Assembly: GCA_044356455.1 (NCBI GenBank)
Contig: JBIKWF010000116.1
Location: 1 to 13,430, forward strand
Direction: 5' to 3'
DNA: 13,430 nt
From: Bdellovibrionota bacterium
Lineage (GTDB): Bacteria; Bdellovibrionota_C; UBA2361; JBGSMV01
The notes under the pieces were generated by a model. The model saw only the letters and a list, made by a program, of their open reading frames with translations, had not been told where the DNA came from and did not search any database. Both the position numbers and the translations under genes were made by a program. Numbering within the stretch: position 1 is the first letter of the stretch; each line of letters begins with the position of its first letter. Below are positions 4,082-13,430 of the stretch, piece after piece.

Positions 4082-4882
4082 ATGACCGAAGTTACTCTGG
4101 GCCGGTCTCCTGTAAGTGCCACCGGCACGGTTACTATTCCCTCTGCAAAGGAGATGATCGCTTCCGCTACCGCCGAGTTTCAAGCCCGCAGCAGTCAGGA
4201 TCGCCTTGATGAACTTAAGGCGTAAGAGAGCCGAATCATTAAACCAGGGGGAAAGGGTGCGCTTTTGGCCCTTGAAGAGTCTGGAGCAGCAGGCGACCCG
4301 GTTGCCAAGTTTTATTCTGGACTTATTCACCTGCGAGGAAAAGTGGTTGAGCGGAATGAGACTATTGCTGCTGATCGACTGAGGTCGGCTAAGGAACATA
4401 GAGTGGCTCTTCCTCAAGGGAGTCTTGCAGAGCTTGTAAACAGCCCAGCTCCGCAGATTGAAAGGTTAAGCAACCCCGAGCTGGCGGCTCTGCTTAACCG
4501 TGCCATGTTAGCAGCGCTTACCCCGTCCTCGCCACGCGGGGACGGTGCGCGTGACAATGCGCGAAAATTTTTAATTCGTGAAATTGAGAGTTCGGAGGAG
4601 GATGTCGCCTCTACTTTGCAAGCTGGAAGGGTTCCGAGTGCGTTACGTGATGCTGATTCCAAGGTGAAGACTTTGTGTGCAGCTCTCGCAGGCCTTACTC
4701 CAAGCGAAGCCAAAGCGTTCGTTGTCGATTTAGAACTAAGAACCCACCGCACGGTCGGAGCAAACAGTCCACCTTCGAACAAGCACGGAGAGCGGGATGT
4801 GGTGCTCCAAGAAACCGACGAACACATCCTAGAGCAAAGGGACGTGCTTGAGGGAACGAAAAGAGAGCGCCAGTTAGTTTGA
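4082..4882 (+). pseudogene. Hypothetical gene with one Sel1-like repeat, interrupted by an in-frame TAA at 4223-4225
   Basis: GGAGGT (4072-4077) precedes ATG 4082. MTEVTLG...DRLDELKA* continues in the same frame as ESRIIKPGGKGALLALEESG... into the 4265..4882 ORF, which has only a TTG start. The segment GDPVAKFYSGLIHLRGKVVERNETIAADRLRSA resembles a Sel1 repeat. Confidence 0.6.
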
Positions 4883-4943: not shown

Positions 4944-5897
4944 TCACGAGGTGCTCTTTAGCGAGCTACTAAGCACGTTTAGGGCTCCAAACAAGCTCCG
5001 CTCAAATTCTGCTCGTGAAATGTGGGTTATCACCCTGATGTTTTCTGGCCCTTGCGCTTTGAGGCGAGAGTCGATTATGAGCATTCCCCGTGTCTGACGG
5101 CTTTCTGTCTCGATAGCTCCGCGCATGGGCTTCCCTTGTGTTCTCACTGGTCGCAATGCACAGAAGACCGCAAGTGGGTCATACATAATGGCGCCCCGAA
5201 TTCCCTCCTCCTTCCAATTTCCCTGCATATAGGGTCCTAGCAAATCGAGAATTGCTCTTCTCAGCTTGCCATTCTTGACTCGACCAAAGTCTTTCCGCCT
5301 GAGTGATATTGGATAACACGCATCGAGCGTCACGAGTCTAATTGGCACACCTGCAGTAAGCACCACCGCAGCTGCTTCGGGATCCACATAGAAATTGAAC
5401 TCCGAGAGCGGCCCCTTGTTTCCGGGCGCATGTACGGTGCCGCCAAGTATAACGAGCTCCTTAAACATTCTGAACCCTGAGGGGTCGAGCTTATAGGCCG
5501 CCGCCAAATTGGTAAGGGGAGCGAGAGCAATCAAAGTCACTTCTCCCGGAAGGGAGCGGGCAACTTGCGTGAGTTCCCTTGGGGCTTGCGCCCCTGCCCA
5601 TTTGCCTGCCGGCAGTCTTAGACTCCCAAGCCCGGACTCTCCATGCACTACTGACAGTTCAAGCCTGCGCCGAAGGGGCTTTGCACAGCCGGAAAAAAGA
5701 GGCACATCCGCTTGGCCAAGAAATGAAAGTACCGCGCTCGCATTTCTAGTGGTCGTGCTTACCGAGGCATTTCCTGCGCAGGTTGTGACCGCGACCACGT
5801 CAAGTTCTTTCGAGCCAAAGGCGTACATCAGAGCAAGGGCATCATCACAGCCCGGGTCACAGTCAATCACGACTTTCAAGGCTTTAGTGGTGCTCAT
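4944..5897 (-). CDS. Nucleoside hydrolase (inosine-uridine-preferring / Rih family)
   Basis: VVIDCDPGCDDALAL (DxDxxxDD Ca-binding motif), AGN, VHGESGLG, LAPLTNLA, SEFNFYVDPEAA, YDP and TRGM are present. GGGAGG SD at 5909-5904. ATGA overlap with the upstream stop. Confidence 0.95.
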   Translation of the reverse strand: MSTTKALKVVIDCDPGCDDALALMYAFGSKELDVVAVTTCAGNASVSTTTRNASAVLSFLGQADVPLFSGCAKPLRRRLELSVVHGESGLGSLRLPAGKWAGAQAPRELTQVARSLPGEVTLIALAPLTNLAAAYKLDPSGFRMFKELVILGGTVHAPGNKGPLSEFNFYVDPEAAAVVLTAGVPIRLVTLDACYPISLRRKDFGRVKNGKLRRAILDLLGPYMQGNWKEEGIRGAIMYDPLAVFCALRPVRTQGKPMRGAIETESRQTRGMLIIDSRLKAQGPENIRVITHISRAEFERSLFGALNVLSSSLKSTS

Positions 5898-7849
5898 AGC
5901 AGGCCTCCCATACTCCCAACTGTTGCTTGTTCTTCAATTACCACCCTGAGCGCGCTCAGCGTTCCAAGGAGGTACGGGAGTCGTGTGCGCAAAACGCCAG
6001 GTGTCTCGCTGAGCGGCACCCTAGAATTCGCAACTAAAATTGTTCTTTGCCGAGGTCCGGGAGAGACCAAGTCAGCGCGAGAATCGCCAATCATAGTGAT
6101 GTCGACGCCAACTCCCGCGAAGGCGTTGAGCACGGTTCCCTTCGCTTCATCCAGGGCAGCAATCGGGTGAATAGAAGCGTATCCGTAGAGTCCCGCATCC
6201 GGATTGATCTCGAGGGCACATCGAAGTCCGGCCAGATCGCGCAGTTCTGTTTCAAGAACTTGAAGGCTTGCAATAAACTCGCGGTCTCCAAAGATTGCTA
6301 CTGAGGCTTCGCGTCCGGCTCCAAACGAAAACCAGCGCCCTTGCAGTGGTGGTGCCGTCCCACCGAACTCTGTGGCCCACCTCTCGGGGAGCTCGTCGCG
6401 ATTCATCTGGGACGCATACACCCGTACTCTTTCCTTGAGCGCAGAAATATTTGTCAGCGTTCTTAGCGAAACTTTGCTTCCATCCTCGGTCCACAGCACG
6501 CTTCCCATCTCAGCGAGAATAGGTCCGCGAAGTCCCAATGATAGGGCAAGTTTTTTGAGTGGTTCGCTTGGGCTATCTGAGCACAAGCCGACAGCGATGT
6601 CCGAGCGCTGGGCTTCCGCAACGAGAGTTTTGAGCTCTTTGCTGAGAAGGGGATCGAGCGCCGATTCTCCTGGTGCGAAAAGTGTCCCGTTGACGTCAAG
6701 AAGAACTACTTGAGGGGGGAGCCCCACATTCGCCACAGCAGAGACGAGATTCGCTTCCTCTGGAGAACTGACAAGTTTCTCTGAAGTCATCCTGCTGATT
6801 GCTGATTTCAGCAGATCCGCCAGGCGAGTTTGCTCAGATACTCCAAGGATACAGGCCGCGTAGCGTGCGAATCCTTGGGTGCAGTCAGCGAGAGAGAGGG
6901 TGAGCCCCTCTTGTGCCTCAAGAACCTCGGCAAACTGCAGATTTGCTTTGAGCACAGCGACTGAGAACGAGACTGCGGCACTTTCCGGAATGCTTGCTCG
7001 GCTGGCGGGGTCGGCGAAGGGAAGACAGTAAGGGAGTTGACCGAGTGTTTCACCGGGCAAAGAAACCCAGGCTCCTCCCAGGCCGACCATGAAATCTGAC
7101 AAGTCGACAAGGTCCATGCTCTGAAGAGGATTGTTATTTGGGTCGCTGAAGCGAACTACTGAATCCGGTGCAAGATCGTCCAGCATTCCAACTTGAGTGA
7201 AGGCAGCCACCCTTTTCGGAGTGATGCCTACTTGTCTTAGAAGCGACGCCGCGCGGCGAATTGTTCCGCCCGTCACAATGTGATCATCCACCAAAGAGAT
7301 TTCTTTTCGCTCCTCCACACTTGATTGTCCAAGGAGCGCTTCAAGCTGAGTAGAAATAGGGGTTCCAAAACGCGGCGTGAATCCGATTCTTCGCTGCCCC
7401 GAGAGCGTAAAAAGCCGCGCGAAGTCCCAGAGTGGAATATTAAGTTCAGAGGCAAGCTCTGGAGAAAGAGAGATGCAAGACTCCTCTTGATTGCGGCAAG
7501 GAATTCTCGCTGCCAACTCAGCCTGGTCTAAGGTGAGAAGACGAAAGCGTGACTGCCGCTCTGATTGCTGGCTCCATTCCTTAGATTCGATAAATGCGCG
7601 TTGAAGAGCGATGGCGACAGAATTTCGAAGTTCAATCAGTCCTGGACTCACGGCTGCACGCGCACGAGAACTGGGGATACCAAGCCGCTTAGCAAGTCGC
7701 TCCCCGAGTCCGTTCGCAACTCCCGGGGCCTCGTCGATAAGCGCAAAAGTGAAGGATGCTCGCCGGAGATCGATATCTCGCTCACCGGCCCAGGTTTCTC
7801 CCACTGGGATAATCTGATTCTTAGGGTAGTTTTCGCTTTTTTGTGCCAC
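5894..7849 (-). CDS. Fusion protein: N-terminal type I phosphoribosyltransferase-like domain plus C-terminal HAD-superfamily (Cof/IIB-like) hydrolase domain
   Basis: ISLVDDHIVTGGTI matches the PRPP-binding loop. HAD motifs: I VVLLDVNGTL, II LCSD, 'PILAEMG' at the C2-cap junction, III AKG, IV MIGDSRAD. GTG start with a weak SD. Confidence 0.8.
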   Translation of the reverse strand: MAQKSENYPKNQIIPVGETWAGERDIDLRRASFTFALIDEAPGVANGLGERLAKRLGIPSSRARAAVSPGLIELRNSVAIALQRAFIESKEWSQQSERQSRFRLLTLDQAELAARIPCRNQEESCISLSPELASELNIPLWDFARLFTLSGQRRIGFTPRFGTPISTQLEALLGQSSVEERKEISLVDDHIVTGGTIRRAASLLRQVGITPKRVAAFTQVGMLDDLAPDSVVRFSDPNNNPLQSMDLVDLSDFMVGLGGAWVSLPGETLGQLPYCLPFADPASRASIPESAAVSFSVAVLKANLQFAEVLEAQEGLTLSLADCTQGFARYAACILGVSEQTRLADLLKSAISRMTSEKLVSSPEEANLVSAVANVGLPPQVVLLDVNGTLFAPGESALDPLLSKELKTLVAEAQRSDIAVGLCSDSPSEPLKKLALSLGLRGPILAEMGSVLWTEDGSKVSLRTLTNISALKERVRVYASQMNRDELPERWATEFGGTAPPLQGRWFSFGAGREASVAIFGDREFIASLQVLETELRDLAGLRCALEINPDAGLYGYASIHPIAALDEAKGTVLNAFAGVGVDITMIGDSRADLVSPGPRQRTILVANSRVPLSETPGVLRTRLPYLLGTLSALRVVIEEQATVGSMGGLL

Positions 7850-7910
7850 AAGATGATTCCAATCGAAGTGGCCCTAAGCGGTGTTTGTTTGTGCTAGTGG
7901 TGCGCGAGAC

Positions 7911-7940
7911 AACAAAAAACCGGCTCAAGGCCGGTTGTTT
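7911..7940 (-). terminator. Intrinsic terminator (attenuator) in the 5' leader of the PRTase-HAD gene
   Basis: The minus strand reads AAACAACCGGC-CTTGA-GCCGGTTTTTTGTT: a GC stem followed by U6, about 60 nt upstream of GTG 7849 and in the same orientation as the operon. Confidence 0.85.
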
Positions 7941-8036
7941 AAGAGAGTAAATCTAGAATTTCCAAATGCCAGGAACTTCCAAATGTAGTGCCCAAAAGTA
8001 ATGCAGTGACTGCACTAAACCGACCACACTGATGCT

Positions 8037-8090
8037 TCAGTGCTTATGTGGAGTGAGTCGATGATGTTTGAAGTTCGCGGAAAACTGCAT
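8037..8090 (-). CDS. Putative attenuator leader peptide MQFSANFKHHRLTPHKH (17 aa, 4 His)
   Basis: ATG CAG TTT TCC GCG AAC TTC AAA CAT CAT CGA CTC ACT CCA CAT AAG CAC TGA. It overlaps a predicted protector hairpin and precedes the antiterminator and terminator. Confidence 0.7.
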   Translation of the reverse strand: MQFSANFKHHRLTPHKH

Positions 8091-8096
8091 GCCTAA

Positions 8097-8125
8097 GAAA
8101 TAGCAAGGTTGTGAGGCGTAATCAA
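8097..8125 (-). promoter_or_regulatory. Candidate sigma70-type promoter for a leaderless leader-peptide transcript
   Basis: TTGATT (8125-8120), a 17-bp spacer ending TGC (extended -10 TG), TATTTC (8102-8097), then 6 nt to ATG 8090. The -10 lacks the conserved final T. Confidence 0.45.
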
Positions 8126-8154
8126 CAAAAAAGATCAGGTATCAGAATGTTTTC

Positions 8155-8355
8155 ACCACAAAGGACGCAAGGGACACAAAGGTACACATTGAAATTGCTA
8201 GGAGTCTGTCCCCTAGAAAAATCTCACCACTACAGGCTGTGGTGGCAACGGGGCAGGCTACCTCCGGATCGTGTCCGAAATGCAGATTAATGTTTCTAAG
8301 GGACAAATCTGAGTTTGAATTGAGCTTTCTTTGCGTCCCTTGTGTCCTTTGTGGT
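8155..8355. repeat. Long-range inverted repeat of 9-nt-period units enclosing a nested hairpin
   Basis: ACCACAAAGGACGCAAGGGACACAAAG (8155-8181) and CTTTGCGTCCCTTGTGTCCTTTGTGGT (8329-8355) match at 25/27. Inner stems: AGTCTGTCCC/GGGGCAGGCT (8203-8259) and CACCAC/GTGGTG (8225-8244). Confidence 0.8.
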
Positions 8356-8450
8356 CCAATAATGTCTTGAGTGATTTTAGCGTTTCACGCCAAACATTCT
8401 TACGCCCCACAAGTATTTTTCCCAAAAGGCCGAAGGTCTCCCTTTTAAAA

Positions 8451-8506: not shown

Positions 8507-8869
8507 ATGAAATGTGTTCATCTATATACGAACGAAAGTGGAGAGTCTGCCTTTGGTGAAATTGAGATCCCCTATGAGCACTCGGGACCCGAGCAGTTTG
8601 CTTTCGTGCGCGCCCCTTCGTCCATGCTCCTCAATGAAACAGTACCTGGGCATCAGTATGACTGGCACAACGCCCCCCGCCGACAATGGGTAATCACCTT
8701 GCAGGGAGAAATCGAAGTGCAGCTTCGAAGTGGCTTGAAGAAGCGGTTTGGCCCTGGGTCTCTTCTTTTAGCTGATGATACCAGGGGATCGGGGCATGCA
8801 ACCAAGGTGGTGAGCAGTGACCCGTGGCGGTGCGCGTATCTTCCATTTGAGGGCGAGCTTAGGCTTTAG
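8507..8869 (+). CDS. Cupin domain protein
   Basis: WHNAPRRQWVITLQGEIEV and FGPGSLLLADDTRGSGHAT correspond to the two cupin motifs. ATG start, 120 aa. Confidence 0.88.
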   Translation: MKCVHLYTNESGESAFGEIEIPYEHSGPEQFAFVRAPSSMLLNETVPGHQYDWHNAPRRQWVITLQGEIEVQLRSGLKKRFGPGSLLLADDTRGSGHATKVVSSDPWRCAYLPFEGELRL

Positions 8870-9046: not shown

Positions 9047-9176
9047 GGAAACTCTGAAAGACATCGCTAGCTCATTTTTCCCCCTCAGTGAACTCTGTGC
9101 CCTCTGTGGTTGATTTAAATTGTTGAAGAACCACAGAGGACACAGAGTTCACTGAGCGGACTTTTTCAGAGATTCC
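9047..9176. mobile_element. MITE copy B (130 bp; apparently inverted relative to copy A, diverged)
   Basis: CTAG-GGAAACTCTGAAAGAC ... CTTTTTCAGAGATTCC-CTAA. The internal inverted repeat 9084-9111 / 9129-9156 matches at 27/28. Confidence 0.8.
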
Positions 9177-9243: not shown

Positions 9244-9870
9244 ATGAAGCTTGGAGCGATGATTCTTGTAGCTGCGTTCGCGTTCCCCTTTGCGGTAAGA
9301 GCAGAGGACTTGCCCGAGCCTCGGCCTGGCCTTTGGCAGATGACTAATTTTAAAGAAGACGGAACAAAGCTTCAGACAAGTACGCGCTGTATCGATGCGG
9401 CGAGCGAAGCGCGCGTGCGCGAGTTTGCCAACAGACCTGAAACTAAAGAGGCGTGCCCAAAAAACACTACGGAGAAAAAAGGTGACGTATACGAGAGTTA
9501 CTCCGAGTGCAACATTATGGGCTCAAAAACGATAACCATTTCCCGTACTACCGGGGACTTCAACTCGGAATACACTACGACAATAGAGACCACCATGGAG
9601 CCGCCTATGAGAGGCATGGCCAAGCGGGTATCAAGGTCCGAGTCAAAATGGCTTGGAGAGTGCCCCCCAAACATGAAGCCAGGGGATGTCTCTGTTGATG
9701 GAAGAGCACCCGTCAACGGGATTGACTCGGCCTTAAAGGCTCAGAAAATTCACGACGATTTGATGAAGAAGGATCCTAATTTTGCCAGAATGGTGAATGA
9801 AGCCAAGCAAGGCAAGATCCCTCAGTCAGATTCTGGTGGGGGCGTGCGAATACATGCGCGCCCAAAGTAG
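9244..9870 (+). CDS. Secreted DUF3617-like protein
   Basis: Signal peptide ending AVRA, followed by RPGLWQMT, four Cys and the KWLGEC motif characteristic of this family. Confidence 0.8.
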   Translation: MKLGAMILVAAFAFPFAVRAEDLPEPRPGLWQMTNFKEDGTKLQTSTRCIDAASEARVREFANRPETKEACPKNTTEKKGDVYESYSECNIMGSKTITISRTTGDFNSEYTTTIETTMEPPMRGMAKRVSRSESKWLGECPPNMKPGDVSVDGRAPVNGIDSALKAQKIHDDLMKKDPNFARMVNEAKQGKIPQSDSGGGVRIHARPK

Positions 9871-10871: not shown

Positions 10872-11000
10872 GGAACCTGTGAAAAACTGACCTCTGTGTA
10901 GCTCTGCGCCCTCTGTGGTGAAATTATCATGAAGAAATTGACCACGGAGGACACGGAGTTACACAGAGGTGTACTAAGAATGGAGGCGTTTCAGAGGTCC
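10872..11000. mobile_element. MITE copy D (129 bp, close homologue of copy A)
   Basis: CCAG-GGAACCTGTGAAAAAC...GCGTTTCAGAGGTCC-CTAG is collinear with 2721-2850 along its whole length, including the internal hairpin. Confidence 0.85.
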
Positions 11001-11876
11001 CTAGTATTGAATGTACACCTGGTTTTGGGTCTCTTCCAGAACCCAGCTTAGCATCTCTTCCGTGGCGATAAGCGTATGGGAGTTATACGTAGGCGGAGCG
11101 CATATCCCGTTCGATACCGCCGAGTTCACGCCAATTACCAGTAGCGGCCAAGCGGGGTCGAGTGACATGAGAGAGGGGCCACCAGAATCACCATGGCATA
11201 CGCCACTTTCAGAGTAGTCGAAGAAGGCTGATACATAAAGATTCAAATCTACTGAGATGCCATCGACACTTGATTGGCCCACGCGCAGCTGGCCATCGGT
11301 TGCCTGAGTATTAGGATCAAAGCGGCCATATCCCGTAATAAGGGTCGGGGTGCCTACCCCAGGAGTGTAGGAGGAAAGTACTCCAAGAGCGCCATAGTAA
11401 GGTCTCTCAAAAGTAATAATCGCAGCATCATACGGGAAATGAGGAATCACCCCGTTCTCGTCAACATACTGAAAGTAGCCATGCACGTAGTTGGGGTGCG
11501 GCGCGACAGCGGTAGCACGGTTGAAGCTGCCATCCTCCATAAGAAGAAACAGTTCCTCGGGTGCGGCGAGTCTTGGACTTTCTCCTACGTGGACGCAGTG
11601 CCCTGCGGTCAGATACTGATAGGGATTAATCATTGTTCCGCTGCATGTAGAAACTAGGTTAGTGAAGGAGTCAACTGCATACATCTGCTTCACATACGGA
11701 AGCTGCGCCGGGTCGATTACCACCCCATTAATGATGCGCTCTTGAGCGGCAGGTGCTGAGCCCTCAGATCCGCTTCCACTGCAGCCTGTGAGAGTTGCTG
11801 TGAGAAGAACCGCGGCTGAGCAAAAAGAGATTGTCTTACGAAGTAATGAATCATTCAGGGAAACTGAGAAACGCAT
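11001..11876 (-). CDS. S1 (chymotrypsin/trypsin-fold) serine protease, predicted lipoprotein
   Basis: Lipobox LTGC, R-IINGV mature-type N-terminus, CSGTMI..LTAGHC (His), YDAAII (Asp) and CHGDSGGP (Ser). GAGGTG upstream favours ATG 11876 over ATG 11894. Confidence 0.93.
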   Translation of the reverse strand: MRFSVSLNDSLLRKTISFCSAAVLLTATLTGCSGSGSEGSAPAAQERIINGVVIDPAQLPYVKQMYAVDSFTNLVSTCSGTMINPYQYLTAGHCVHVGESPRLAAPEELFLLMEDGSFNRATAVAPHPNYVHGYFQYVDENGVIPHFPYDAAIITFERPYYGALGVLSSYTPGVGTPTLITGYGRFDPNTQATDGQLRVGQSSVDGISVDLNLYVSAFFDYSESGVCHGDSGGPSLMSLDPAWPLLVIGVNSAVSNGICAPPTYNSHTLIATEEMLSWVLEETQNQVYIQY

Positions 11877-12000
11877 AGAGCACCTCACCACCATAACCTT
11901 AGTGCCCTTTCGTTGGGGCGTTCTTAGGTTGTTATCGTGCTCTTTAGAGAATAGTTGCTTAGATCCCTTTCTCCCTGGGATTTCAGGTTATTAGCCTAGA

Positions 12001-12022
12001 TCTTTCAGAGTAGGTTCCCTAA
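12001..12022. repeat. Solo MITE terminal repeat (copy E)
   Basis: The reverse complement reads TTAG-GGAACCT-ACT-CTGAAAGA, i.e. the TIR with a 3-nt insertion. It overlaps the ATPase stop codon. Confidence 0.55.
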
Positions 12023-13430
12023 GGAATCCCCAGTTCCTTAAATGCACTTTCAAGGTCGCCCTTTTCGACCACATAATCGCGGCTTCCTCTGGCGGACTCT
12101 CGCTTGAAGGCATTGAGCCCGGCTTGATTGCAAATGGTGCGAATATCGGCAGCGGCCTTGCCGTTAGTACGCCGGGCAAGTTGAAGCACGTCTGCAGGTT
12201 CGCGAAGCTTAAGCTTGGCAAGATAGAGTGAAAACAGTTTCTGGCGCGCTTCAAGTGAAGGCAGCGGAATTTCTATAACTTTATTCAGGCGACCGCCGCG
12301 CTTGAGCGCTGGGTCAACAAGATCGGCCCTATTCGTAGCTGCAATAATGTAAATACCTTCTCGTGTGATTACGCCGTCGATAAGCTGCAGAAGGTGATTG
12401 AGCAAATTGTCGGCATGTTGCGCATTGCCTTCTGAGCGATTTTTCGCGATTGAATCAACCTCGTCAATAAAGATAACTGCGGGGGCGTGTTTGGCCGCAG
12501 CCTTGAACAGCCTCGTTAGATTTTTTTCAGATTCGCCCACCCATTTTGAGATCACCTCGTCCATCTTAAGTACGAAGAAGGAGAGTTCGGCGGTAGAGGC
12601 AATTATTTTTGCAATTGTCGTTTTGCCGGTTCCCGGCGGCCCGTTAAGAAGAATCCCCTTAGGGACATCTATCCCGTAGTTTTTTGCAGTTGCGGGGTCC
12701 TTAAGTAAATCGACCACTGATTGAAGCTCTTGGCGCAGGGCAGGGTCGATGATGACATCATCCCACGTCACCCGCTCTATGCCCTTATTGAGTGGAACCG
12801 GCGAAACGGCGGCGTCGGGTTTGTCCTCAAGGAGGTCTTGTTCGGTCACGGCATAGTCGCTTAGAGCTGCTTCAATATCCTCTGAGGAGATAAGAAAATC
12901 CCGCTGATCTTTGCCCTTAGACGACTCGCGCTTATAGGCATGGAGTCCTGCTTGATTGCAGATTTCTTTGATATCAGCAGCAGAGTTCCCCGCCGTCGCA
13001 GCGGATAGCGCTTCCAAGTCCACGTCGCTTTCAAGGTGCAGGTGCGCAAGATACAATTCGAAAAGTCTCCTACGGCTTGCGTCATCAGGACGGGGAATTT
13101 CGATGACTCGGTTAAGCCTACCTGCTCTTTTCAGCGCATCATCAACTAAATCAGGACGATTTGTGGCAGCGATTATGTAGAGGCCTTCGGTCTTTACCAC
13201 CCCGTCCATCAGCTGCAAGAGATGGTTGAGAAGTCCATCCCCAGATTCAGATTGGCTATCGGAACGCTTTTTCCCGATAGCGTCGATTTCGTCGATAAAG
13301 ATTACCGCAGGCGCCTGCTTCTGGGCTGTTTCGAAAAGACGAGTTAAATTCTTCTCTGAGTCGCCGACCCACTTTGAGACAATTTCATCTGGCCTGAAGG
13401 CAAAAAAGTTAAGCCCCGCGTCACTTGCCA
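12019..13430 (-). CDS. Tandem-domain AAA+ ATPase (classic clade, CDC48/p97-like architecture); 5'-truncated by the window edge
   Basis: The frame stays open to the window end (ASDAGLNFFAFRPDEIVSKWVGDSEKNL...IFIDEID...). The C-terminal module has GPPGTGKT, KWVG, IFIDEVD and AATNR..LVDPALKRGGRL. The preceding module has Walker B and SRH motifs. Confidence 0.95.
   Translation of the reverse strand, partial: ASDAGLNFFAFRPDEIVSKWVGDSEKNLTRLFETAQKQAPAVIFIDEIDAIGKKRSDSQSESGDGLLNHLLQLMDGVVKTEGLYIIAATNRPDLVDDALKRAGRLNRVIEIPRPDDASRRRLFELYLAHLHLESDVDLEALSAATAGNSAADIKEICNQAGLHAYKRESSKGKDQRDFLISSEDIEAALSDYAVTEQDLLEDKPDAAVSPVPLNKGIERVTWDDVIIDPALRQELQSVVDLLKDPATAKNYGIDVPKGILLNGPPGTGKTTIAKIIASTAELSFFVLKMDEVISKWVGESEKNLTRLFKAAAKHAPAVIFIDEVDSIAKNRSEGNAQHADNLLNHLLQLIDGVITREGIYIIAATNRADLVDPALKRGGRLNKVIEIPLPSLEARQKLFSLYLAKLKLREPADVLQLARRTNGKAAADIRTICNQAGLNAFKRESARGSRDYVVEKGDLESAFKELGIP

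Follow-up and report, generated by a model that had tools for sequence, protein, structure and literature searches.

Why does a leader with the parts of a histidine attenuator stand in front of two genes outside histidine biosynthesis? The question is raised by a 13,430-nt stretch of DNA from a Bdellovibrionota bacterium (the whole stretch analysed is hereafter called the window). The type of switch is textbook, and its cargo is unexplained. A preliminary description of the locus had stated that the regulated genes are not his biosynthesis genes, and our Pfam and NCBIfam searches, which revealed neither his biosynthesis nor transport genes among them, agree with this. The leader comprises the following elements:

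8097..8125, minus strand: putative promoter with a -35-like hexamer (8125-8120), a 17-nt spacer and a weak -10-like hexamer (8102-8097), placed by the TTG-to-start spacing
8090-8037, minus strand: leader uORF of 17 codons with His at codons 9, 10, 15 and 17 (ORF translation)
8019..8062, minus strand: protector with a lower stem (8062-8056/8025-8019) and an upper stem (8043-8037/8032-8026), from folding (-14.1 kcal/mol)
8018..8025, minus strand: 5' arm of the antiterminator, which pairs with 7936-7929 in folding and has bases in common with the protector lower stem
7999..8017, minus strand: inner hairpin 1 (8 pairs), within the antiterminator multiloop, from folding
7938..7996, minus strand: inner hairpin 2, within the antiterminator multiloop, from folding
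7914..7936, minus strand: predicted intrinsic terminator with the stem 7936-7930/7924-7918 and U6 at 7919-7914

The uORF had been described as carrying four His codons among its last nine, and its translation bears this out (three of the His codons end in U and one in C); such an enrichment in codons of a single amino acid is characteristic of attenuators. E. coli HisL shares a motif likeness with this uORF. TTG precedes the start codon by 35 nt, the same distance as in a leader of another genome of the class (G023, 35 nt), and 19 hisG leaders described below have a spacing of 34-37 nt. With this spacing transcription would begin at the start codon, so that ORFs of this kind are likely leaderless; the transcription start of the window uORF would thus probably lie at or beside its start codon. 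A sigma-70 consensus scan did not pick up the putative promoter at 8097-8125. The rule for leaders of the class (TTG 34-37 nt before the start and at least three His in the last 13 codons) also holds for the window, with its 35 nt and four His. This genome has 4163 short ORFs in which TTG lies at the same distance from the start. At least three His in the last 13 codons are found in 23 of them; eight of the 23 have four His, and two of these eight add a terminator, namely the window uORF and one ORF inside a gene. The Rfam covariance search of the window gave 20 matches (E up to 5), with His_leader (RF00514) absent among them, and no His-rich leader was found at hisS or at the HutH-like gene of this genome.

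Folding confirmed that a helix extends over the His codons and the stop codon, but the limits proposed for it previously (8060-8021) had to be replaced by those of the two stems listed above. The lower stem is covered by a ribosome at His 9-10, and the upper stem spans the last His codon and the stop. The proposed pairing of 8025-8018 with 7936-7929 (8/8, one G-U) was also found, with a duplex energy of -11.5 kcal/mol; when the leader was shuffled 1000 times with its dinucleotides preserved, 15 shuffles offered an equally good partner for the terminator arm 7936-7929. The distance of 11 nt between the uORF stop and the antiterminator holds as well. Two inner hairpins (8017-7999 and 7996-7938), absent from the preliminary description, draw the arms of the antiterminator together. 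The intrinsic terminator noted earlier is likewise predicted, as a stem of 7 pairs (7936-7918, -10.9 kcal/mol) followed by six U at 7919-7914. The layout is indeed mutually exclusive: 8025-8018 is common to the protector and the antiterminator, and 7936-7929 is common to the antiterminator and the terminator. Compared with its shuffles, the fold of the whole region shows a modest gain (z -1.81, 12/200).

In the full transcript, the terminated (-47.2 kcal/mol) and antiterminated (-46.2 kcal/mol) forms are near-equal end states. The values obtained for the ribosome-free protector lower stem were 0.94, 0.11, 0.80, 0.91 and 0.49 at transcript ends 8015, 8000, 7980, 7960 and 7940, respectively. At equilibrium, the antiterminator prevails over the protector (0.96) at any ribosome position once the terminator 5' arm is transcribed, and the terminator dominates (0.84-0.89) once its 3' arm is transcribed. 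Masking a ribosome footprint of 9-10 nt past the A-site codon left the fold outcome unaltered; with the ribosome masked at the stop, the antiterminator reached 0.84, 0.65 and 0.20 for 12, 13 and 15 nt covered past the stop. Of the ribosome-set switch proposed earlier, the exclusive parts are present, but equilibrium folding switches only at a footprint of 13-15 nt past the stop. The constrained folding with ribosome positions, suggested at that time as a check, gave a similarly divided answer: a stop-bound ribosome weakens the antiterminator at 13-15 nt, but the stall position has no effect at usual footprints. Since equilibrium folding yields no ribosome-dependent switch at usual footprints, the models imply that the switch decision must be kinetic.

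We infer the promoter, translation, stalling and timing from the sequence, and propose the following course of events. Transcription would begin at the uORF start codon, where the ribosome would load in a leaderless manner. If His is plentiful, the ribosome would reach the stop and cover or melt the first bases of 8025-8018, or it would leave and the protector would re-form; the terminator would then form at 7914. If His is short, a stall at codons 9-10, 15 or 17 would cover the 5' strand of the protector and free 8025-8018, and the antiterminator would seize the terminator 5' arm while the 3' arm is still to be transcribed. The leader is, in our judgement, most likely a genuine His-sensing attenuator of the classical terminator type, but a leaderless one.

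DNA of the window occurs in lake-water metagenomes. A close strain, X19 (one contig of depth 2.1, from one run), is ~94% identical in the coding region. Its leader is changed at 5 of 177 bases (2.8%), compared with 119 of 1805 bases (6.6%) in the coding region (P about 0.02). Among the 13 differences in 7837-8134 (10 of them listed), five lie within 8090-7914. The changes seen in the leader are (i) Lys to Asn at codon 8, directly before the His pair, (ii) a synonymous change by which pair 8043/8026 of the protector upper stem becomes A-U in place of G-U, (iii) changes at 8007 and 7970, in the loops of inner hairpins 1 and 2, respectively, and (iv) a change at 7948, which breaks one A-U pair of inner hairpin 2. 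The start, stop, His codons, antiterminator and terminator are all unaltered. A DNA search of the 124 genomes of the class with the window leader revealed no homologue, just three chance-level matches of 22-32 nt, and the terminator-type layout rests on the window's genome and one close strain.

One further element lies near the leader:

8138..8400, no strand assigned: copy of a dispersed palindromic repeat, directly upstream of the putative promoter (more than 100 overlapping genome matches)

In the X19 contig, position 8135 is joined to 8435 via 54 other letters and the repeat is absent, which marks it as a recent insertion; the repeat is outside the switch. The window contains further long palindromic dispersed repeats of this family (2743-2815, 9085-9155 and 10894-10966). 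Its other genes encode a tyrosine recombinase (5-820), a sulfatase/LTA-synthase-like protein (832-2565), a cupin (8507-8869), a DUF3617 protein (9244-9870), a trypsin-like protease (11001-11894) and an AAA ATPase (12019-13218), and we saw no link of the leader to any of these six genes.

The genes that the leader would control are the following:

5894..7849, minus strand: 651-aa fusion of an N-terminal type I PRTase-like part and a C-terminal HAD-IIB (Cof-type) domain, from weak Pfam/NCBIfam matches and structure
4944..5897, minus strand: 317-aa IU-family nucleoside hydrolase (PF01156, E 3e-78), with a 4-nt overlap with the fusion stop

The fusion matches no family above cut-off (PF00156 scored 17.9 bits, under its cut-off of 26.3). 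It contains a PRPP-loop motif at residues ~186-197, and PRTase-domain clusters are the nearest to its N-terminal part (0.93, an Atlas lead). Residues 379-644 of the AlphaFold model (pLDDT 90) were superimposed on the HAD-IIB structure 1wr8 (Z 18.6, rmsd 3.1, 223 aligned), and the protein displays the HAD-IIB fold together with motifs I-IV, motif I being DxN. Residues D385, T389, S424 and K570 are invariant in 34/34 members of the fusion family, and the second Asp is replaced by Asn (DxN) in 30/34. Three structure searches with the full model returned HAD-fold chains only, their matches being filled by the HAD domain and not addressing the N-terminal fold; a single-sequence model of an N-terminal-only homologue had a pLDDT of 33. 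The family has about 35 full-length representatives, and its halves are also found apart. In some members a further domain is fused on, of the APH-type kinase, NUDIX or cytidylyltransferase-like kind (HAD-NUDIX in G018 and P0060). Related proteins of ~580 aa (L022-L027) have an N-terminal extension joined to the PRTase-like half, and their genes either follow a gene that is 2OG-Fe(II)-oxygenase-like by eye or are fused with it; proteins similar to these match CTP_transf_like.

The nucleoside hydrolase, the sole copy in the genome, scores 263.8 bits against PF01156 (cut-off 34.2) and retains an intact N-terminal DxDxGxDD motif, and it scores under the NCBIfam cut-offs of RihA/B/C and UriH. The late His of IU nucleoside hydrolases is usually catalytic; it is replaced by Tyr in 6 of the 9 aligned copies, the window's included. 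The hydrolase always sits behind a PRTase-HAD gene. A ribokinase gene adjoins the pair in three genomes (G001, G035, G119) and is located elsewhere in the window's genome. The name 'nucleotide-metabolism operon' used in the preliminary description is correct insofar as the PRTase-HAD and nucleoside hydrolase families were found, but it is a label of families only and says nothing on the substrate.

Full-length fusion genes are present in eight genomes of the class. His uORFs upstream of them, sought as had been recommended, include one in G023, but they precede 2/8 class homologues in all (G000, which is the window's genome, and G023), and the helices could be compared with one close strain, in which one pair goes from G-U to A-U and one is broken. 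No His leader precedes the fusion gene of G001, which is of the same genus as the window, and four genomes (G001, G031, G119, G120) have neither a HisD match nor a His leader at the fusion gene; G035 and G097 are His prototrophs, yet carry it. In G097 (L032:207-4195) the fusion gene follows a glycerol-1-phosphate-dehydrogenase-like gene and is accompanied by a second, monofunctional IGPD, away from the main his operon; IGPD beside a fusion gene was seen this once. The G023 fusion belongs to a different family from the window's (38% protein identity), and a quick, unrooted tree placed the two proteins in separate well-supported clades, with that of G023 beside two copies without such a leader. 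This distribution would fit either separate recruitment or repeated loss of the His leader. The closest homologues of the window fusion are P0002/P0003 (47-48% identity), a genome scan with P0009 alone found nothing, and the named records bearing homologues belong to Bdellovibrionota or Deltaproteobacteria, CPR taxa and Streptomyces.

Profiles of HisD, HisG, HisA/F, IGPD and HisI found no match in the window's genome (93% complete), with 14/14 controls detected, and a tblastn search of it with eight His proteins of G047 revealed merely weak HisC- and HisN-like paralogues. The organism is thus probably a His auxotroph, judging from its gene content; a his operon might still lie in the missing part of the genome. 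HisR/YerC also found no match there. The genome has two TGT genes and queA, with no match for QueC, and the second TGT (L031:248-2326) is fused to a C-terminal domain of ~300 aa that is methyltransferase-like by eye.

A HisG match was found in 57 of the 124 class genomes. Among the 30 best hisG loci, 18 have a short ORF located 34-37 nt after TTG with at least three His in the last 13 codons, and 2 of the 12 loci without the leader end early. This class-wide His leader upstream of hisG (L049-L077, L044, L045) seems to be undescribed. Its ORF is likely leaderless, a short GC hairpin spans the stop codon, and the leader ends in a tract rich in C/U and poor in G; it has no intrinsic terminator and would be of the Rho or translation type. 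The model R1 was built from 19 hisG leaders alone, and it is a sequence-only model, because RNAalifold found no consensus pair in them. Scanning with R1 revealed 66 places in 54 genomes (E up to 0.05). The best 38 of the 66 comprise (i) 23 that adjoin hisG (19 of them training sequences) and one before the second his cluster of G047, (ii) one before the PRTase-HAD/hydrolase pair of G023 (E 6.4e-6) and eight before other non-his pairs, and (iii) one before a transposase-like fragment (G112), two Ile-rich leaders and two chance-like places. All nine places at non-his pairs sit in genomes lacking a HisG match. The 22 loci from outside the class that were scanned with R1 gave no match. Nor did the window leader, which does not combine a GC hairpin at its stop codon with a pyrimidine tract (its tail has a G content of 0.28 and a pyrimidine content of 0.56). 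The window leader most likely evolved, or was acquired, apart from the class-type leader.

The cargoes of the class-type leader are diverse. In five loci (L108:761-2757, L109, L113, L119, L177) it precedes a PvcA/TyrRS-fold-like protein, with an S66 peptidase behind in four of them; the label is a lead (PF05141 on 21% of the cluster). This cargo was found in 6/124 genomes, none with a HisG match. The cargoes at four other loci (L110:718-2534, L112:717-2347, L114:882-2710, L120:751-2878) are, respectively, a SAM methyltransferase with a Rieske oxygenase, an M20 deacylase with a GNAT protein, an unknown protein with DUF6282, and an unknown protein with a thiohydantoin-desulfurase-like one. A further His leader, in G049, was found via its cargo. 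G023 lacks HisD, HisG and IGPD matches, and IGPD was absent from all His-leader cargo genomes (0/12; completeness 70 to 96%). Strong HisF-like matches in G023, G118 and G107 were rejected as his operons on their neighbours (hisH-like, sugar amidotransferase and nucleotide-sugar genes). Comparison of 33 upstream stretches of cargo leaders and his operons revealed four pairs with similar neighbours, all among HisG-bearing genomes. In the last 13 codons of the hisG leaders (247 codons), His occurs 81 times and Asn, Asp and Tyr together 5 times. Other observations made in these genomes were Ile-rich leaders of the same architecture before uncharacterised genes (L116:629-704 and L118:696-756, in G045 and G083), the split his operon of G047, whose two His leaders lie apart (L117:334-408 and 4159-4232), and a TrpR-like gene, HisR/YerC-like by eye, divergent from the his operon of G004 (L044:3947-4221).

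Outside the class, 11 CPR-type loci (nine + two) were compared. The leaders upstream of their PRTase-HAD genes (L143-L153) are T-box-like; their stem I is very short, and by eye a CGC triplet is common to its loops. At gathering score, Rfam found a T-box in 0 of 10 loci, and sub-threshold matches occurred in 5 of 7 submitted loci. The automatic intersection of the stem I loops was empty (L152 folded differently), the Arg specifier having been read by eye; an earlier assignment of these T-boxes as Tyr-specific was replaced by Arg. Short ORFs with two or three Arg codons precede attenuator-like hairpins in L153, L012 and L150, and in L153 the Arg-codon attenuator stands in tandem with what remains of a T-box. 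The CPR-type homologues therefore appear, by these sequence features, to follow Arg. A PLP decarboxylase, an APH kinase and an iron redox enzyme are encoded near the Streptomyces homologues, in what look like biosynthetic clusters, which suggests that the family is able to build as well as break ribosides. In the actinomycete loci L160, L161, L165, L167 and L168 we observed a PLP decarboxylase, split PRTase-like and HAD genes, a GFO oxidoreductase and tailoring genes; a ribosylated natural product is a possible outcome of such clusters.

The R1 match before the same gene pair in G023, together with the cargo leaders in genomes without HisG, indicates that control by His starvation is likely real. 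The reading of the locus as a His attenuator has gained from the hisG leaders with the same start geometry, the G023 leader and the lack of his genes, but the details of the switch were borne out only in part. We consider it likely that the attenuator turns on the PRTase-HAD protein and the hydrolase at low charged tRNA-His in a probable auxotroph, possibly freeing ribose-phosphate-linked His.

What the enzymes do is a matter for more tentative proposals. The removal of ADP-ribose or ribose phosphate from an amino acid takes a chain of activities to which a phosphatase, a riboside hydrolase, a ribokinase and an occasional NUDIX domain correspond. Our best guess, which we rate above defence, storage by a write/erase system, breakdown of nucleotides in general and salvage of queuine, is that the enzymes may salvage His from its ribosylated forms. 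The substrate of the HAD domain would be N-(5'-phosphoribosyl)-histidine, derived for example from ADP-ribosylated proteins that are degraded in prey or detritus. Once the phosphate is removed, the hydrolase would split the product into His and ribose, the latter to be recycled by ribokinase; the part of the PRTase-like domain would be to bind the phosphoribosyl adduct or to interconvert it. In favour of this guess, the CPR-type homologues appear to follow Arg, which like His is an acceptor of ADP-ribose. For His this is described in PMC10952255, and ribosylhistidine occurs in the literature accessible to us, mostly in metabolomics. Against it stand the two His prototrophs that carry the fusion gene and the biosynthetic-looking surroundings of the Streptomyces homologues, and we know of no source of ribosylated His in this habitat. 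A wider and speculative extension is that auxotrophs of the class repeatedly wired a His-starvation leader to unrelated enzyme pairs, each recovering a differently modified His (ribosylated, methylated, acylated or peptide-bound). Together, the PRTase-HAD protein and the hydrolase would then salvage ADP-ribosylated or phosphoribosylated amino acids (His here, Arg in CPR) by a hitherto undescribed route, in which the leader codon names the substrate.

Several other explanations of the same data have to be weighed against salvage. It is unlikely that the attenuator is real and the enzymes defend against, or detoxify, a His mimic or a nucleoside-type HisRS inhibitor sensed via uncharged tRNA-His. 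The S66 peptidase (of the family of MccF), GNAT and methyltransferase among the other cargoes would suit this, as would the company kept by the Streptomyces relatives (PLP decarboxylase, iron redox enzyme and APH kinase); however, prototrophs would need such protection too, yet 0/24 of the best R1 places in HisG-bearing genomes precede non-his cargo, and the six PvcA-like cargo genomes of 124, which are kin and not independent, include none that bears HisG. Most of the cargo pairs can be seen as a transferase with a remover (methyltransferase and Rieske demethylase-like protein, GNAT and M20 deacylase, PvcA/TyrRS-fold protein and S66 peptidase, PRTase and hydrolase), and there is a small chance that the PRTase-like and HAD parts make a ribosyl-histidine store or signal from which the hydrolase releases His. 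Against this, both genes would be induced in starvation, when storage of His harms, and their co-expression would be a futile cycle unless the writer is gated. We give similarly little weight to the idea that the His codons are a general starvation gauge of an auxotroph whose enzymes degrade ordinary nucleotides to bases and ribose. The family does follow different amino acids by lineage (His here, apparently Arg in the CPR-type loci), has ribokinase neighbours and lacks the leader in 6/8 class homologues, but the other His-leader cargoes are unrelated to nucleotides, and the hydrolase falls under all Rih cut-offs and has Tyr at the usual late His.

It is quite improbable that the leader was orphaned by the loss of a his operon, or that a chance ORF happens to stand ahead of a premature terminator of the ordinary kind. 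The His leader of G112 followed by a transposase-like fragment, the window layout without a homologue and the modest folding z-score would agree with such an origin, but the same gene stands in two separate clades under two different His leaders, the upstream neighbours of cargo leaders are unlike those of his operons, and X19 shows a purifying pattern. Least probable of all is that the leader senses whether tRNAs with a GUN anticodon carry queuosine, and that queuine is salvaged by the operon via a QueK-like hydrolase (QueK is a queuosine hydrolase, for which the family IPR023186 is used in the accessible part of PMC11130926), as the two TGT genes and queA without a QueC match and the Asn codon before the His pair of X19 might hint, because the G023 leader belongs to the hisG leader family, with its 81 His against 5 Asn/Asp/Tyr in 247 codons, Arg control in CPR-type loci is unfitting, and no tgt or que gene lies beside any pair.

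Returning to the reading of salvage under His control, the leader labels uncharacterised enzymes with the metabolite to which they answer. About half of the 124 genomes have no HisG match; ten of these, and also the window, have a His leader before one of six different non-his pairs, which are testable candidate routes for the acquisition of His by auxotrophs. If the PRTase-HAD family handles ribosylated amino acids, a gap in the recycling of ADP-ribosylated proteins would be filled.

With respect to known systems, the available parts of PMC9413887 and PMC3766115 describe His attenuators in gamma-proteobacteria and predict them in some Firmicutes, always before biosynthesis or transport genes. 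A literature search, with subscription journals and supplements outside its scope, found no His leader in this lineage or before PRTase-HAD/hydrolase genes. The enzymes have their own relatives: the window hydrolase shares PF01156 with RihA/B/C, UriH and QueK, but is below the NCBIfam cut-offs of RihA/B/C and UriH and has Tyr for the late His, and the fusion has the PRPP-loop motif and HAD-IIB fold in common with type I PRTases (APRT, OPRT) and HAD-IIB/Cof phosphatases, but DxN instead of DxD. As regards the leader, hisL of E. coli and Salmonella (RF00514) works, as far as the accessible text relates, through a His-rich leader ORF and exclusive protector, antiterminator and terminator (PMC9413887), and the window has the same parts, including a predicted intrinsic terminator. 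Unlike in hisL, the His codons of the window are scattered, not tandem, the ORF is probably leaderless, there is no Rfam match, and the genes under the leader's presumed control are not biosynthetic and belong to a genome in which no his gene was matched. The His leaders predicted in the B. cereus group, Eubacteriales and Erysipelotrichales resemble the window in being non-Rfam, with three to five His codons, a terminator and an antiterminator, but in the portion of the source at hand these Firmicutes-type leaders control his operons or His transporters, whereas the cargo of the window is an uncharacterised enzyme pair (PMC9413887). The class-type his leader (R1) agrees with the window in TTG-to-start spacing, length and His-rich tail, and heads the same pair in G023, but it has the GC hairpin over the stop and the pyrimidine tract without an intrinsic terminator; a weak proposal involving Rho, from the accessible part of PMC1262725, offers a comparison for it. 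Finally, the mycobacterial poly-Cys sORF 'ribulon', in the part of the preprint available (bioRxiv 10.1101/834739), is like the window a leaderless short ORF that serves as an amino-acid sensor before unrelated operons; there stalling frees an RBS, whereas the window has a predicted intrinsic terminator and its relatives have a stop-codon hairpin and a pyrimidine tract.
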